Assembly: GCA_035546975.1 (NCBI GenBank)
Contig: DASZVS010000014.1
Location: forward strand, 124,029-188,028
Direction of reading: 5' to 3'
Length of the DNA stretch: 64,000 nt
Source of the DNA: Candidatus Saccharimonadales bacterium
GTDB lineage: Bacteria > Patescibacteriota > Saccharimonadia > Saccharimonadales > UBA4665
Part shown: one piece after another, positions 7,604-31,000 of the stretch
Numbering within the stretch: position 1 is the first letter of the stretch
Layout: each line of letters begins with the position of its first letter
The notes under the pieces: generated by a model
Told to the model about the DNA's origin: nothing
The model's database searches: none
The model's input: only the letters and a program-made list of their open reading frames with translations
Position numbers and translations under genes: made by a program

Positions 7604-8221
7604 TTATTTGCCCTGCTCTTTAGGCGGGTTTTGAATGACAGCATCAACGAGGCCGTATTTCTTGGCTTCCGCCGCGGTCAGCCACTTGTCGCGTTCCATA
7701 TCTTCATGGATTTTCTTAGCGGTCTGGGCGGTATTTTTGGCCATAATTTCTTCGAGCAATTTCTTAATACGCAAAGATTCGCGCAGATCAATCTCCTGAT
7801 CGGTAACTTTGCCGCGGGTGCCGGATGATGGTTGGTGAATCATAACGGTGGCATTCGGCAACGCAAAGCGCTTGCCCTTCGTGCCAGAGCTCAAGAGGAA
7901 GGCGGCAGCTGAAGCTTGCACACCGATACCTACTGTCTGTATGTCATTAGTGACATATTGCATGGTGTCATAAATAGCCAGCGCATCGTAAACGCTGCCA
8001 CCGGGGCTATTAATGTAGAAAAAGATGTCTTTCTTGGGGTCTTCTGCCTGCAGGAACAGCAACTGGGCAACAATCAAGTTGGCCGTAGCTTCGTTCACGT
8101 CAGAGCCCAGAAAGATAATCCGGTCTTTTAAGAGGCGCGAATAAATGTCGTAGGCACGCTCATAGCGGCCTTCATTTTCGATAACGGTGGGGATTAAAAC
8201 TTGTGCTTTTGGACTGCTCAT
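7604..8221 (-). CDS. clpP: ATP-dependent Clp protease proteolytic subunit
   Basis: Motifs [31 protein letters not shown], catalytic Ser context [11 protein letters not shown], and IHQP. The ORF-track start at 8257 is a TTG lying inside the CIRCE/-35 element. The ATG at 8221 ([13 protein letters not shown]) gives a normal ClpP N-terminus. Confidence 0.92.
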
Positions 8222-8228
8222 ACCATCT

Positions 8229-8257
8229 ATTTTATAGGACGAATTAGCACTCGTCAA
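8229..8257 (-). promoter_or_regulatory. clpP promoter candidate overlapping CIRCE
   Basis: On the minus strand: TTGACG (8257-8252, inside the CIRCE spacer), 17-nt spacer, TAAAAT (8234-8229). The ATG follows 7 nt later. Confidence 0.5.
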
Positions 8258-8270
8258 CCCAGAGTGCTAA
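8244..8270. promoter_or_regulatory. CIRCE inverted repeat (HrcA operator consensus)
   Basis: Exact TTAGCACTC (8244-8252), N9, GAGTGCTAA (8262-8270). Both 9-nt arms match the consensus perfectly. Confidence 0.85.
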
Positions 8271-24025: not shown

Positions 24026-25108
24026 TCAATTCTGTGTATTCTGCTGGCTCAAACGAGTATCCAGCGCTTTATCCAGAGTGGTCAACGCTTTAGCTATGTT
24101 ATTCCGGGCATCTACTAGCTGGTTGTACTGCGCGATAGCTTGCTTAAGCGCCCCTACGCCATTATTATACGAGCTAACTTGACTGTTAAAGGTTGGCACG
24201 GCGGCATTATAAGCAGCAGTTTGGCCGGAGGACAGTTCATTATCCAGCTGCTTTTTGAGGGCCATAATAGAACTTTGCTGGCTTTCGAGAGCCGCCTCTT
24301 GGCTGTCAATCTGTTTTTTCATGGCAGCAAGCTGCTGATCATCCTGGGCTATAGCATTCTGTCGTGCAGTAAACTCGTCCTGATAATGGTTGCTATACGC
24401 TACAATAGCCGCCCGGTTGGAGAAATATTTTTTATAATATGCCTCGAGTGGCGCCGGCAAATTGGCAATTTCTGTACCGAAAGTAGAGTGCATCTCATCG
24501 AGTACGGCTCCCGGCTCAGTTTGCTGGTACAACTTAATTTCACTGATAACTTGCGGGTCTTTTAAGCCATTTTTGTAATAATCATTGAGCATTTTGTTAA
24601 CGTTCGCCCGCTCTTCAGGACTGAGGCGCGCATAAATAGCATGGAGTGTCTCATGGGCAGCCGTCACTTGTGCCACGCCTTTAAGCGAAGGATCTTGGAC
24701 GTTGTAGATGTATATTCCGTTTTCGCCGGGGTGATAACAACCGAGGACAACGGTATCTTTATTCTCAGGACAGTGCTGCCGGAAACTGGTGATATTTGAT
24801 AAAAGTTCCGGCTTGTTCAGATAAAAAAGATGCTGGGCATACGGCGTCATGGTATCTTCCGTGGCCAGCTGGCTGACCGCCGAAGCGGGATGGTAGCCGC
24901 GCATCCGCCACCAGTCAGAAATACCTTGCCTATTGGCTATGATGAGCCCGAGCAGGATTGCCCACACCGCCACCATAGCGAACGTTATAGTCCATGCCCG
25001 CTTGGAGCGCCGCGGTTTTAGAGTGCGGATTCCTGGCAAAGGCCCGGCTGCCGGCCGAGGTGGCAATCCGGGTACTTCTGGAGGCGGAGATTGTGAATTG
25101 TCATTCAT
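24026..25108 (-). CDS. membrane-anchored hypothetical protein with HExxH motif and Gln-rich coiled-coil C-terminus
   Basis: 360 aa. Pro-rich N-tail, one TM helix (WTITFAMVAVWAILLGLIIA), AAHETLHAIY, and a C-terminal heptad-like Q/A/L-rich region. Confidence 0.6.
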   Translation of the reverse strand: MNDNSQSPPPEVPGLPPRPAAGPLPGIRTLKPRRSKRAWTITFAMVAVWAILLGLIIANRQGISDWWRMRGYHPASAVSQLATEDTMTPYAQHLFYLNKPELLSNITSFRQHCPENKDTVVLGCYHPGENGIYIYNVQDPSLKGVAQVTAAHETLHAIYARLSPEERANVNKMLNDYYKNGLKDPQVISEIKLYQQTEPGAVLDEMHSTFGTEIANLPAPLEAYYKKYFSNRAAIVAYSNHYQDEFTARQNAIAQDDQQLAAMKKQIDSQEAALESQQSSIMALKKQLDNELSSGQTAAYNAAVPTFNSQVSSYNNGVGALKQAIAQYNQLVDARNNIAKALTTLDKALDTRLSQQNTQN

Positions 25109-25229: not shown

Positions 25230-27710
25230 TTATTCGGTAACGGTAGCATAGGTAAGCTCGCTATTTTTGCTTGCTACCTGAATGATATCACCTTTTGTGT
25301 ATTTTTCGTCTAACAAATCAAGGGCCAAATGGTCTTCGATCGTATCCTGGATGAGGCGGCGCAATGGCCGGACGCCATTCTTCGCATCGTAACCCTGCTC
25401 GAGCAAGTATTGCTTGGCGCTCGTACCCAGCTGTACGCTAATTCCTTTGCGCTGCAGGCGCTCCTTCAGTTCATTGATCTGCAAATCGATGATCTTGTAT
25501 ATATCTTTCTTGGTCAAGGCGTGAAAGACGATAGTTTTATCTATGCGGTTCAAGAGTTCCGGCCGAAGCAATTTCTTCAACTCGTCGTGAACCCGGTCTT
25601 TGTTGGCCTCATGCATAGCTTCGAGATCTTTGAGCTCATCGGCCTTGGTTGCACGGAAACCGAAACTGGCTTCTTTTTGCAATTTATCCGCGCCAACGTT
25701 CGAAGTCATGATGACAATCGTATTGGTAAAGTCTATGCGGCGGCCTTTGGCGTCAGTGATATAGCCGTCTTCCAGCATTTGCAGGAGCATGTTAAATACA
25801 TCCGGGTGGGCCTTTTCGATTTCGTCAAAGAGGACTAGGCTGTAAGGCTGGCGGCGAATTTTATCCGTCAACTGGCCACCTTCGTCATAGCCGACATATC
25901 CGGCCGGAGCGCCCACTAGGCGGGAAACATTGTGATGTTCGCCGAATTCCGACATATCTATCTTAACGAGGGCATTCTCGCTGCCAAAGAATTCACGCGC
26001 TAATACGCGGGCCAACTCGGTCTTGCCTACACCGGTAGGGCCAAGGAAAATGAATGACCCGATGGGGCGCTTCTCGGTACCGACGCCGCTGCGGTTACGC
26101 CTGATAGCGCGGGCCACGGCACTCACTGCTTCTTTCTGGCCGATGATATATTTGCTCAGTTCCTTTTCAAGGTTCAAGAGATACTTTGCTTCGCTGCGGA
26201 TAACGTTCTTCACCGGCACACCGGTCATGCGCGAAACAACATCGGCTACATCTTCGCTGGTTACCGTAAGCTGTTTGGTATGCTTGCCGTTGGCACGTTC
26301 AGCCGCAAGCTTTTCATTAATCTGCGAGGCACGGGTCTTAGCACGGGCAGCGCGCTCGTAGTCCTCGGCGTCCACTGCTTCTTCGATTTGCGTATTAACC
26401 AGTTTGAGCTCTTTCTGCAGCTTCCGGACTTCCGGGCTAGTCTTGCCTTTATCTACTCGCAAATGCGCCGCAGTTTCGTCAATCAAATCAATAGCTTTGT
26501 CCGGCATATAGCGGTCATTTATGTATCGTCTGGCAAGATTAACGGCGTCCTCCAGAACTTCGTCGCTCAGTTTAACGCCGTGGAACTGCTCGTAGTGGCC
26601 GCGCAAGCCTTTCAGAATAGCGAGCGTTTCGCCAGGCGTCGTTTCAGGGACCTGGATAGGCTGGAAGCGGCGCTCCAGGGCGGCGTCTTTTTCGATATGC
26701 TTGGTGTACTCTACCGTAGTAGTAGCCCCGATAACTTGGATTTTGCCGCGGGCCAGTGCCGGCTTCAAGATATTACCGGCATCCATAGCGCCCTCAGCGG
26801 CGCCGGCGCCTACAATCAGATGCAACTCATCGATGAAGACTATAGTCTGGTTGTCTTTCTCCAGTTCTGCCATAACCTTTTTCAGGCGCTCTTCAAATTC
26901 GCCCCGGTACTTTGTGCCGGCAATCATACCGGCTAAGTCCAACATAACGATCCTTTTATCGATCAAACTATCAGGCACATCCTCGGCAATAATACGCTGG
27001 GCCAGGCCTTCTACAATAGCGGTTTTACCAACGCCAGGCTCGCCTATTAATACGGGGTTATTCTTTGTCCGCCGGTTCAAGATGGTAATAACGCGGCGTA
27101 TCTGGTTATCCCGGCCTACCACCGGGTCAAGCTTGCCCTCACGGGCTTGTGCCGTCAGATCTGTACCGAAGAAATCAAGAGCTGTCTTTTTAGCCTTCTT
27201 GCCGCTGCGACGGCTGCGGGCCGTTCCGGTATCATTTTCTTCGTATTGTTGCCGGTTGAAGAATTGCTCGAGCTCATTCATAAGCGTTTCGACATCAATA
27301 TTCATATCGCGAAGCAAAATCGTAGCCCGGGCGTTTTTCTGGCTGAGAATGCTATAAAGGATATGCTCCGTACCGCAATACTCTTGCGAGTAATCCTGGG
27401 CTACGTCATATGCCATCTTGAGTGTTAGCTTGGCAGTTTCGCTTAAACCTTTGGCGCCAACATTTATAACGAGCGTCTTGGGCGTCATATTGAGCGCCAT
27501 GCGCGCCCGATCAAGCGTAACGCCAGCGCCCTCAAGCACTTTAGCGCCCATGCTGCCATCTTGCGCCAACACGCCAAGCAAAAGATGCTCGGTGCCAACG
27601 TAAGCACTGCCAAAATTACGAGCAATAGCGTCTGCATGCTTCAAGCTCTGCAGGGCATTGTTCGTTAAATGATTTAAAAATTCTTGGAAGTCGGGAGAAT
27701 TCGGCATCAT
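25230..27710 (-). CDS. clpC: ATP-dependent Clp protease ATP-binding subunit ClpC
   Basis: 826 aa. Two Clp_N repeats, two AAA+ modules ([10 protein letters not shown] and [11 protein letters not shown]) and a UVR-like linker. Confidence 0.95.
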
Positions 27711-27871
27711 ATTTTTTGTACCACCTTTCCTTTATGTGTCATGCCTTAAGCCTAATCGAGACGGCTGAGGTGCTGCTGTAAAGGGGTCGCTTGTTGATAA
27801 ATCTGGATGCCCCGCTGCCTGGTGGCCTGACATTTGGCTTGTTTCTATGCTCTTAAAACTTGCCTACATCC

Positions 27872-27899
27872 ATTGTAGCACTTAGCACTCTCACGTCAA
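27872..27899 (-). promoter_or_regulatory. clpC promoter candidate overlapping CIRCE
   Basis: On the minus strand: TTGACG (27899-27894, inside the CIRCE spacer), 16-nt spacer counted to TACAAT, and extended -10 TGCTACAAT (27880-27872). It lies about 160 nt upstream of the clpC ATG. Confidence 0.5.
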
Positions 27900-27908
27900 G
27901 AGTGCTAA
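27882..27908. promoter_or_regulatory. CIRCE inverted repeat (HrcA operator consensus)
   Basis: Exact TTAGCACTC (27882-27890), N9, GAGTGCTAA (27900-27908). Confidence 0.85.
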
Positions 27909-28010
27909 TTCAGCCTGTTGTTTGGGTTGGTTGGCAGGGCTGGATTGCCATTTATCTCCAAGACTCCGAGCAAGCCGTAGTCGTCGCTACGGCGCAGCTG
28001 GATTGAAGGA

Positions 28011-28036
28011 GAAAATGGCGAGAAAGCCCGTCGCCA
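28011..28036 (-). terminator. weak terminator candidate after the giant gene
   Basis: Minus-strand RNA: UGGCGA-CGGGCUUUC-UCGCCA followed by UUUUCUCC, about 60 nt after the stop at 28094. Confidence 0.35.
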
Positions 28037-28093
28037 GACAGTCCAAGCAATGGGTTGCACGTAGTATTCTTGGCGTGAGTCAAGAGTGCTAAT

Positions 28094-31000
28094 TCAGCTC
28101 TTGTCTTCGGGGTTTTTCGTCTCAGGCGAATAGACCGTACCGGGGCTTGCAGGATGATGGCCCGGAGCTTCGGACGGGGCTGACTGCTGCTCGGAAGAGA
28201 CAATGCGTGACGGCTCAACGGGACGCACGGTAGCAAGGCGGCTATTCCACGGCCGATAGATCAGCAGAGCGCCGCCCAGCAATGCCAGAACTGGTATGAC
28301 AAGCAAGAACGGGTTAACGGCGGCATGCGCCATCGACAGTTTAATATTTTGTAGATCATTACGGTGGGAGGAATTTGCGTCTTTTACATGAATAGTGCGG
28401 GATGTAACTTGGCCGTTGTACTGGACTGAGACGTCGTGCTTGCCCACGGGCACGTTAGTGAAGTAAGCAATGCCTTGCTGGTTGGTCTGCACCGTTTGGT
28501 TGTACAACGTAACTTGGGCGTGATAAGCCGGTCTATGGTGCTTGTCGAAAACAGTAATGGCTACGCGCGGCCTAACCGGCTGCTGGTGACTGCCGCTGCC
28601 AGAGTTGCTTCCACCATTACTACCACTCCCCGAGCCGGCTCCGCCCTGGCTCGAGCCGCCGCCCGAAGAAGAGGAGGAAGAGCTCACATAAGCAGACAGC
28701 GTGCAAGTCTGCCAAAGCTGTCCGGTTTTCCAGCTTGCAGGTAAGTCTGCAAGGTTATTACTACTGGGCGATTGCGAACAACTTCCAGAAGCGGCGTCGC
28801 GGAATTTAACTTTTCCGCCTGTGCCAAGTAAAGCAATCCAATACGTCGCACCCTTTGTAACGTTCGGTTTAGAGCTGAGCGTAATTGCATTCCATGCTGC
28901 AGGCTTAGGCGAATTAATGCTGCCGCTGGCCAATAAAGAACCTGGCTTACCGTTGCTGTCAGAGTAGAGCCCTGCCGTAACTGTGGTGGCGGCTGAACCG
29001 CTGTCCAGATAAAGGCTTATTGTACCGGCTTGGCCAGAGGCCACAGCGGTGTATTTAAATGCTTCCGGGCTGCCTGCTGCATCATTATCCTCTGCCGCCT
29101 GGACGCCATTAGTTCCGAGCAGCAAGTCGTTGCCGCCGCCATTATTACCCGAACCACCGCCTGAGGTGCTGGCCGCCGGCGTCGTTACGCTCACCGTTGC
29201 CGTCTTGTTACTGGCATTACCGGCCTTATCGACTGCACTGACTTGATAGGTATAGGTTGTTGACGGCTGGGCTGATGTGTCAGTGTATGCAGTGGCAGTT
29301 TGCGGAGATTGATTAAGCTGCTGGCCATTCCGATAAACGATATATCCGGCCAAGCCCGAGCCCCCCTTATCAGTTGAGTCGCCCCAACTAAGGTTGACTT
29401 GCGTGGAGCTATTGGCCGTGGCTTTCAGGCCGCCCGGTACTGTCGGAGCGGTTGTATCCTGCGGCGCCGGCGTCGTCGCGCTGGCAGCGGTTGATTGCGA
29501 AGATTTGTTGCCGGCACCATCGACGGCCTCTATCTTATAGCTGTACGTTGTATTTGCGCTAGCCGTGTCATCGCCGTATGTCGTGGTTGTAACCAGGCTT
29601 GAATTTATCTTGGTGCCATTTCGGTAAACGTTATAGCCTGCCAAACCCGAGCCGCCGGCATCCGTACTGGCATTCCAGCTAAGGTTGACTTGCGTGGAGC
29701 TTGCCGCGGTCGCCGAGATACCCGAAGGAGTACTTGGCGGCGTCGTGTCAGGAGTGCCTGTGCCTCCCCCGTTTGAGCCAGCGCAGCCGTTAGTGCCGTC
29801 GATACAGACTGGCTGCAAGTTATCGTCCCAAACATTGCCGCTCCAAGTTGTAGCTTTGCTGAAATAATACTCTGATATGCCATAGTTGCCTGACTTAGGG
29901 TAATAACCGTTGGCATCGGCTCCGCCCTGACAGGTCGTATTGCCGCCATTCGAGTGATAGACCGGAGCTGTTAAGCAGCGTGCCAGATGATTATTGGTGA
30001 TGCTCGTGCTACTGGAGCCCGCGCTTGTGCCATTGCCGCATGGATAGAACGTGAAGCCGCCGCCCGCTACCAGGCTATTTGATACGGTGACATGGTTGGA
30101 GCAAGTGCCGCCAGAGCCGCCATTGACGTTAGCGAAAACGACAGCCGTCTGCCCTACCGGGTTGAAGAATGTTGAGTGGTCCATATTCAATGTACTGTCA
30201 CTCATATATATGTTTTCTACATGATCCGTAGAAATAGCTATCTTAGCGATACCGTACGTATTGGTTACCGTAGCATTACCGACATTATATAAGTTGGAGT
30301 CACAACCATGCAGATAGGAACCGCTGATCTGGACCGTGCCCGAGCTCGTATTACGGATGTCATGCTCACAGGTGATACCAGGCGCGGTCAGTAATTCAAC
30401 GTTCTTGATGACCGTTCCGGTGACGCCTTCATTGATCCGGATTTCTGAATTACCGCAGGTGTTAGTGGCACCACAGCTGCCCGAATTCAAGGTAACGCGC
30501 GTATTTTCGACCGTGACATTATTAGCATCAATCTCTATTGAGCCAGCCACATCCTTGGCATTTATGACCTGTCCTGCCGTTGAGGCCGTGATAGAGCCCG
30601 ACGCGGTCAAAGCCGTGCCAGCCGGGACACCGGTGTTGGTAGGATCAGGATAGCCGCAGGCACTAGGCTTGGAGAAGCAATTCTTAGCTTGGGTACCACC
30701 GGTCGTACCACCGCTACCAGCGCTCGGCGTCGTCACGGATGCTGCCGCAGAATTGGCCGAGACGTTCCCGGCACCGTCGACGGCCTGAATAATATAACTG
30801 TAACTCGTATTGGCAACGGCATTGGTATCTGTGTAGCTAGTGCCGGCTACCTGGGCTATAACTGTTCCGCCGCGTAGGACGTTGTACTTAGCCACACCGG
30901 TAGCATTCGTGCCGCTATCTGTGGAAGCGCTCCAACTGAGATTGACGGTCGTGGCATTGCTAGCCGTGGCTTTAACGTTCGTAGGCGCACTTGGCGGCGT

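Follow-up and report, generated by a model that had tools for sequence, protein, structure and literature searches.

In Bacillus subtilis, CIRCE lies between the transcription start site and the gene in the dnaK and groE operons, these two operons make up the regulon, and clpC is controlled by CtsR. Relief of repression under proteotoxic stress is explained by established models, in which HrcA activity is linked to titration of GroE or HrcA acts as a thermosensor (reviewed in PMC7053576). The Mollicutes have lost CtsR and in this group HrcA and CIRCE control clpB and lon; in the lon promoter, CIRCE is located upstream of the -10 and the -16 (TG) element (PMC12597100). Next to nothing is known of how Saccharibacteria and other CPR bacteria regulate transcription. 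A search of the literature returned no paper linking HrcA or CIRCE to Saccharibacteria or CPR, and the TM7x transcriptome paper (PMC10768705) holds no usable co-regulation data for the clp and chaperone genes of the epibiont.

The DNA analysed here is a stretch of 64,000 nt from a Candidatus Saccharimonadales bacterium, which we refer to as the window. The operator upstream of clpC in the window is a textbook CIRCE; its position around the -35 and the inclusion of the Clp system in the regulon differ from Bacillus. Judged from sequence comparison, 27882-27908 is very probably a functional CIRCE that serves an HrcA-type repressor and is merged with the sigma-70 promoter of clpC.

The clpC operator and promoter

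The features of the clpC locus, and the related site upstream of clpP, are as follows.

25230-27710, minus strand: clpC, 826 aa, a ClpC-type Hsp100
27711-27864, minus strand: clpC 5' leader, about 155 nt, with a Shine-Dalgarno (SD) sequence, GGAAAGGTGG, at 27730-27721
27865 (A), minus strand: predicted transcription start, 7 nt past the -10
27872-27880, minus strand: extended -10, with TG at 27880-27879, then c, then TACAAT at 27877-27872; 16 nt past the -35
27894-27899, minus strand: -35, TTGACG, forming positions 1-6 of the CIRCE spacer
27882-27908, minus strand: CIRCE operator with perfect arms, at about -43 to -17, counted from the predicted start; in plus-strand reading, left arm TTAGCACTC at 27882-27890, 9 nt spacer TCACGTCAA and right arm GAGTGCTAA at 27900-27908
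8244-8270, minus strand: the other perfect CIRCE, 5' of clpP

An earlier sequence-only reading of this DNA had described a perfect CIRCE, TTAGCACTC-N9-GAGTGCTAA, upstream of clpC, and the sequence matches this description, with agreement at 18/18 arm positions. It had also placed TTGACG in the spacer on the clpC strand, followed after 16 nt by an extended -10, and this is borne out by the minus strand, which reads TTAGCACTC TTGACGTGA GAGTGCTAA g TGC TACAAT. There are only two CIRCE-like sites with three or fewer mismatches in the window, at 27882-27908 and 8244-8270. By chance, 0.03 such sites would be expected per window, and two or more occurred in 0 of 100 shuffles. The second site precedes clpP (7604-8224), which matches the ClpP family. 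The two promoters had been said to share the same architecture; the -35 does lie in the CIRCE spacer at both, but the registers are 4 nt apart, with TTGAC at positions 1-5 of the clpC spacer and at positions 5-9 of the clpP spacer (TGGGTTGAC).

A consensus scan of 27500-28400 for sigma-70-like sites found one only, which overlaps CIRCE, matches at 10/12 positions and has the TG. The arrangement TTGACG-16-TACAAT with TG is that of a sigma-70 extended -10 promoter, and 75 orthologues share its geometry.

For comparison, 80 orthologous loci were retrieved by ClpC protein (79-92% aa identity), almost all of them from Candidatus Saccharimonadales/Saccharibacteria MAGs, which assigns the window to a soil TM7/CPR bacterium and not to a Firmicute; the full comparison set holds 200 loci and is made up of named relatives and metagenome contigs. 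The presence of the operator in close relatives, on which the sequence-only reading had staked its claim, is seen at all 80 orthologous clpC loci (0-4 mismatches). In an anchored alignment, information content is near-maximal in the arms and TTGAC, with a moderate value at the -10 and none in the flanks. TTGAC forms the first 5 bases of the spacer in 69/78 aligned orthologues, and in L051, L057 and L060 it is at spacer positions 5-9, exactly the register of clpP in the window. TAnnnT follows 16-18 nt past the -35 in 75 orthologues, 44 of which have TG before the -10. Variant arms are often palindromic still, for example TTGGCACTC/GAGTGCCAA and CTAGCACTC/GAGTGCTAG. That the design is not due to chance, as had been argued from its occurrence at clpP and clpC, is upheld by these loci, at 75 of which the -35 and -10 can be called, and by its recurrence at other heat-shock genes. 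An exact 9 bp inverted repeat with N9, a position in the promoter of a protein-quality-control gene and conservation at orthologous loci together place the site among the CIRCE elements. In metagenome runs X1 and X2 of the source study the region is present without differences.

Two side observations concern these loci. The sequence AAGTGCTAY (9 nt, 3' of the promoter-proximal arm) is a near-copy of the arm shifted by 7 nt, which is found in the window at 27872-27890 (minus strand) and at about 40 of the 80 orthologous loci. This produces TTAGCACTC-N16-AAGTGCTAY, overlapping the TG-extended -10, and the near-copy could be a chance product of the TGnTA requirement or could serve as a second repressor contact. 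Additionally, five loci with a Saccharimonadales-type clpC and CIRCE (L009, L044, L050, L056 and L066) are filed under Verrucomicrobiia, Limnocylindrales, Dormiibacterota, Nevskiaceae and Chlamydiae. These nest inside the Saccharimonadales ClpC tree and are therefore probably binning contamination.

Support for a transcription start at about 27865 comes from how far past the end of the -10 the clpC ATG lies in the 75 orthologues. The distances are 6, 6, 6 and 9 nt, then 45 to 249 nt; there is no orthologue in which the ATG is less than 6 nt from the -10 and the next value after 9 is 45 nt. In the four orthologues with the shortest distances (L015, L017, L030 and L080) clpC starts 16-20 nt past CIRCE, and leaderless or nearly leaderless mRNAs are predicted. 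An ATG 6-9 nt after the -10 in these four suggests that the start site is where predicted, and the absence of any further ATG until the leader is long enough for an SD sequence (the gap up to 45 nt) points to the same position. The leaderless orthologues may thus be used to map the start site on evolutionary grounds. The clpP promoter of the window (8221-8270) resembles these leaderless clpC orthologues. With the start at 27865 the leader is about 155 nt long, much like the 160 nt or so that had been claimed.

The product of clpC has the Pfam domains Clp_N (twice), AAA, AAA_lid_9, AAA_2 and ClpB_D2-small, and a short UVR-like middle region without the long coiled coil of ClpB. By eye, the sequence also shows a 13-residue motif and an FGF loop. 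Two Clp_N domains, two AAA+ modules, a short middle region and a ClpP-docking loop identify it as a ClpC-type Hsp100; in NCBIfam no ClpC equivalog scores above its cut-off, and the ClpA and ClpB equivalogs score below theirs. Downstream, the gene order is clpC, a 360-aa gene and radA. The 360-aa gene (24026-25108, minus strand) matches no Pfam or NCBIfam family. In Firmicutes, the interval between clpC and radA is often filled by other genes of the clpC operon. The gene upstream of clpC is co-directional and encodes an 1835-aa surface protein with Ig/fn3 domains. Its TGA stop codon (28096-28094, minus strand) is 184 nt from the operator, or 1 nt in the empty allele described below, and read-through from this gene could add HrcA-independent expression of clpC.

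No similarity to the leader was found among the 200 loci, save for the SD region of L008, and with the same exception it is unconserved even against orthologues that are 89-92% identical. Its fold is no more stable than that of shuffled sequences (z = -0.29), and Rfam contains no match to it. Among orthologues, its length ranges from 0 to about 250 nt and is mostly 45-80 nt. The leader, whose function the sequence-only reading had called unknown, shows no sign of function in these data, and a role as a cis-regulatory RNA or riboregulator was rejected on all four counts. The range of 0-250 nt among orthologues suggests that the leader is most likely non-functional, unconstrained spacer DNA.

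HrcA and the CIRCE regulon in relatives

There is no hrcA within the 64-kb window. One contig of the source study carries hrcA, but its depth is 16.9 compared with 10.1 for the organism, and it was set aside as probably belonging to another organism. In three relatives hrcA is located beside clpC and encodes a protein of 237-239 aa.

L062, 1620-2339: hrcA
L071, 1582-2301: hrcA
L078, 905-1618: hrcA

Each of these genes has its own CIRCE/TTGAC/TACAAT promoter, 1.3-1.6 kb upstream of the clpC CIRCE. The proteins match the Pfam families HrcA_DNA-bdg and HrcA, and they score 176-178 bits with the NCBIfam hrcA model, below its cut-off of 197. The wing-helix aligns to Thermotoga HrcA (1STZ) with E = 1e-17. 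The location of hrcA behind its own CIRCE in these relatives shows that the lineage has the repressor, and suggests that the repressor is autoregulated and that the clpC design is the standard promoter of its regulon. As an observation on size, HrcA of Saccharimonadales falls about 100 aa short of the 338-position profile, with about 100 residues of the C-terminal region missing or diverged, and many other metagenome hrcA-like genes behind the CIRCE design are of about 225-245 aa.

The CtsR heptad box (A/GGTCAAANANA/GGTCAAA) has no match in the window with two or fewer mismatches. Immediately upstream of clpC there is no ctsR-mcsA-mcsB, and the locus does not have the make-up of a CtsR regulon. 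Taken together with the hrcA genes that carry the same operator beside clpC in three relatives, this makes HrcA-type control the best reading. The sequence-only reading had regarded such control, in the place of CtsR, as a rewiring. HrcA-type control is supported, but it is a rewiring relative to Firmicutes only and an order-wide trait rather than a local event.

Metagenomes were scanned for CIRCE sites whose spacer begins with TTGAC, giving at least 120 stretches, with 118 usable sites. TAnnnT is present at 16-18 nt in 97 of the 118 listed sites (82%), against a background of 4.4%. Among the matches listed, the first downstream gene is hrcA-like in 37 cases, dnaK in 23, clpP in 8, groES in 5 and hsp20 in 2; clpC-type (at least 6), clpB-type (at least 4), groEL and dnaJ genes also occur downstream.

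A few of the listed matches are not from CPR bacteria. In four of these, all high in GC (L084, L087, L113 and L140; GC 62-69%), small FmdB-type zinc-ribbon genes (MPTYEYxC...) follow a perfect CIRCE whose spacer contains TTGAC, with no obvious -10 at the CPR spacing. The others are three AT-rich contigs with a longer hrcA (358 aa) and a separate TTGACA further downstream. A further side observation is that some dnaK promoters (L081, L095, L096, L098, L115, L167, L189 and other dnaK loci) have tandem operators, in which a CIRCE enclosing the -35 is followed by a CIRCE-like left arm (TTGGCACTC or TTGGCAATC) right after the -10.

A hairpin element next to the operator

Between the operator and the 1835-aa gene there is a 184-nt element, related copies of which were found in the comparison set.

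27909-28092, plus strand: 184-nt element, a hairpin at about 27911-28057 and a decayed CIRCE-like extended palindrome at about 28059-28092
27895-27914: proximal copy of a 20-nt direct repeat, GTCAAGAGTGCTAATTCAGC, comprising half of the true CIRCE and a 5-nt flank
28079-28098: distal copy of the direct repeat, covering the stop codon of the 1835-aa gene
L033, 2718-2900; L059, 1105-1283; L054, 2680-2862; L043, 2651-2832; L036, 1841-2019: copies directly upstream of the clpC CIRCE
L132, 5997-6176 and 4667-4842: two copies, one upstream of the dnaK CIRCE and one free-standing elsewhere
L152, 3912-4070: a copy adjoining the hrcA CIRCE
L192, 364-726: two copies in tandem, upstream of clpC

The two copies of the 20-nt repeat bracket the 184-nt unit. 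Of all copies of the element, only those of the window, L033 and L192 have a duplicated flank. The unit is made up of an imperfect hairpin of about 150 nt and the palindrome TTAGCACTCTTGAC-N3-6-GTCAAGAGTGCTAA, which is decayed in the window. In 9/10 copies the element abuts a CIRCE promoter.

The eight copies that were aligned are 40-67% identical. In these alignments 84% of the cells are paired, against 29-43% with slid partners, and compensatory changes are found in 33/52 pairs of the element, a value that 0/500 shuffles reach. The base pairs have thus been kept by compensatory changes beyond the controls, as in a structured RNA or foldback. There is also an asymmetry between the strands, with 26 A.C cells and 6 G.U cells on the clpC strand. 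The plus strand, divergent from clpC, folds better by MFE in 8/8 copies and by alifold consensus (-61.5 vs -26.1 kcal/mol), and a covariance model on the plus strand gives 112-167 bits for the copies on which it was trained and 31-65 bits for untrained copies, including L036, L132 and L152. We considered a mutational strand bias behind the G.U/A.C asymmetry and find it unlikely, by reasoning, since the genes here are on the minus strand.

The element is polymorphic within a population. In metagenome run X3, which contains a relative that is about 96% identical, the assembly graph branches within the 20-nt repeat into a filled contig (depth 17.9) and an empty one (depth 37.5). In the empty allele an intact CIRCE and the upstream gene's stop codon are directly joined, the breakpoint falls exactly in the 20-nt repeat, and the clpC operator-promoter is identical in the two alleles. 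On the ClpC tree, the six carriers of the element need six changes, the same number as with shuffled labels. Vertical inheritance as a clade trait was therefore rejected, because the element is scattered on the tree and the identities between copies do not follow the relatedness of their hosts. Presence and absence at one site, direct repeats at the junctions and a scattered distribution are features of MITE-like elements, and no transposase or integrase partner of the element was seen.

The element matches no family in Rfam, and the sigma-70 consensus scan of 27500-28400 found no promoter-like site for it on the plus strand. The possibility that a CIRCE arm provides its -10 (TGCTAAnnT) was dropped, as this fits only about 4/9 copies by eye. 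A plus-strand ORF of 25 aa (MARKPVARQSKQWVARSILGVSQEC; 28016-28093, with the SD AAGGAG) lies inside the hairpin; its ATG is absent in L033 and L059 and it is probably not a gene.

In summary, the element is real, structured, polymorphic and tied to CIRCE promoters. On its nature we are evenly balanced: 27909-28092 may represent an undescribed family of strand-specific hairpins of about 150 nt with a CIRCE-derived palindrome, located specifically upstream of HrcA-controlled promoters (clpC, dnaK and hrcA) in Saccharimonadia and gained and lost within populations. Such a family could be a non-autonomous mobile or foldback element that targets CIRCE, an ncRNA produced in the divergent direction from HrcA-regulated promoters, or an auxiliary module of the operator. 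Under any of the three, a new structured element would be coupled to the CPR heat-shock regulon.

Proposed control of clpC and comparison with known systems

We infer from the sequence that hrcA is present in the source genome, that HrcA binds the operator and that clpC is induced by stress. The operator, at about -43 to -17, would enclose the -35, and its promoter-proximal arm would fill most of the spacer between the -35 and the -10 up to the TG. As the operator covers the -35 and this spacer, a bound HrcA dimer would be expected to exclude RNA polymerase by direct competition. When HrcA is inactivated by heat, or when the chaperonin is titrated by unfolded proteins, clpC would be de-repressed jointly with clpP, dnaK, groES/EL, clpB, hsp20 and hrcA.

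One alternative keeps CIRCE as a real HrcA site but supposes that the promoter has been called wrongly. Transcription would then start upstream, for example by read-through from the 1835-aa gene or at an unrecognised promoter, and CIRCE, now within a long 5' UTR, would serve as a roadblock, an mRNA element or both, much as in the dnaK and groE operons of B. subtilis with their CIRCE downstream of the start site. We regard this as improbable. In its favour, the upstream gene runs in the same direction as clpC and the minus strand has no convincing terminator between the two. However, TTGAC and TAnnnT at 16-18 nt are kept together with CIRCE in the 75 orthologues and at 82% of the listed unrelated sites (vs 4.4%), the ATG positions of the four leaderless orthologues are sensible only with a local start, and there is no other promoter-like site in 27500-28400. 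The empty allele of X3, which keeps the full CIRCE and promoter, bears on a different proposal, namely that the palindrome is not primarily an operator but the structural end of the 184-nt hairpin element (mobile or duplicative, with CIRCE-like termini) or a terminator hairpin of the upstream gene. It has in its favour that the element has a CIRCE-like extended palindrome, shares the 20-nt repeat with CIRCE and comes and goes, but 75/80 named loci have CIRCE without the element, and hrcA and the canonical HrcA targets have the same N9 palindrome in front of them. This proposal is, in our judgement, highly improbable.

The remaining alternative adds to HrcA control rather than replacing it. Expression of clpC would be controlled at two levels, by HrcA at the promoter and through the leader, which might hold an RNA thermometer, a binding site for a protein or a small upstream ORF. 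We think this unlikely to a marked degree. Set against the length of the leader, which is long for a small genome and exceeds 150 nt in some relatives, and against an upstream ORF of 33 codons that can be read in it by eye, are its lack of conservation, its z-score of -0.29, the absence of an Rfam match and a length that runs from 0 to about 250 nt and is mostly 45-80 nt. The preferred reading is the one given above, an HrcA-type operator fused to the promoter of clpC.

The locus and the 200 comparison loci together provide a concrete, testable regulon. One repressor, HrcA, would govern both chaperones and Clp proteolysis by means of a compact promoter with its -35 in the operator. The clpC design would also offer a ready-made stress-inducible promoter for the genetic systems that are emerging for Saccharibacteria. 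The hairpin element is a separate lead, being structured, polymorphic and in a fixed relation to CIRCE promoters.

With the HrcA/CIRCE system of B. subtilis, the regulon shares an identical operator consensus, TTAGCACTC-N9-GAGTGCTAA, a conserved wing-helix DNA-binding domain of HrcA, autoregulation of hrcA and the targets dnaK and groES/EL. It differs in that the operator here encloses the -35, in that clpC, clpP, clpB and hsp20 are added to the regulon and in that HrcA is about 100 aa shorter. The CtsR class III regulon of Firmicutes (ctsR-mcsA-mcsB-clpC, clpP and clpE) has in common with it the targets clpC and clpP and a repressor site over the promoter, and the downstream synteny clpC-x-radA is kept. 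In contrast with that regulon, the operator here is CIRCE, with no CtsR heptad repeat in the window and no ctsR, mcsA or mcsB upstream.

The 184-nt element may be compared with ERIC, Correia/NEMIS, RUP, REP/BIME and integron attC, which are small structured bacterial repeats. The element may resemble them in having a long imperfect hairpin, with structure kept over sequence, and in being intergenic, and also in its strand-specific folding, its presence or absence between strains and its tandem copies. It is set apart by abutting a CIRCE promoter in 9/10 copies and by including a CIRCE-derived palindrome.

Mollicutes such as Mycoplasma genitalium and M. feriruminatoris (clpB, lon and dnaK) are likewise genome-reduced and use HrcA and CIRCE for chaperones and AAA+ proteases. 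They belong to another phylum, their CIRCE arms differ slightly (TTAGCACTT/AAGTGCTAA) and HrcA acts there on clpB and lon, not on clpC and clpP; a TTGAC -35 within the spacer is explicit here and is not described for Mollicutes. By analogy, their HrcA/CIRCE regulon is the nearest functional analogue of the one outlined here, and the control of Clp proteolysis by HrcA would parallel an independent development in these genome-reduced bacteria. The best reading of the sequence is that clpC would belong to an HrcA regulon that has expanded, as in the Mollicutes.
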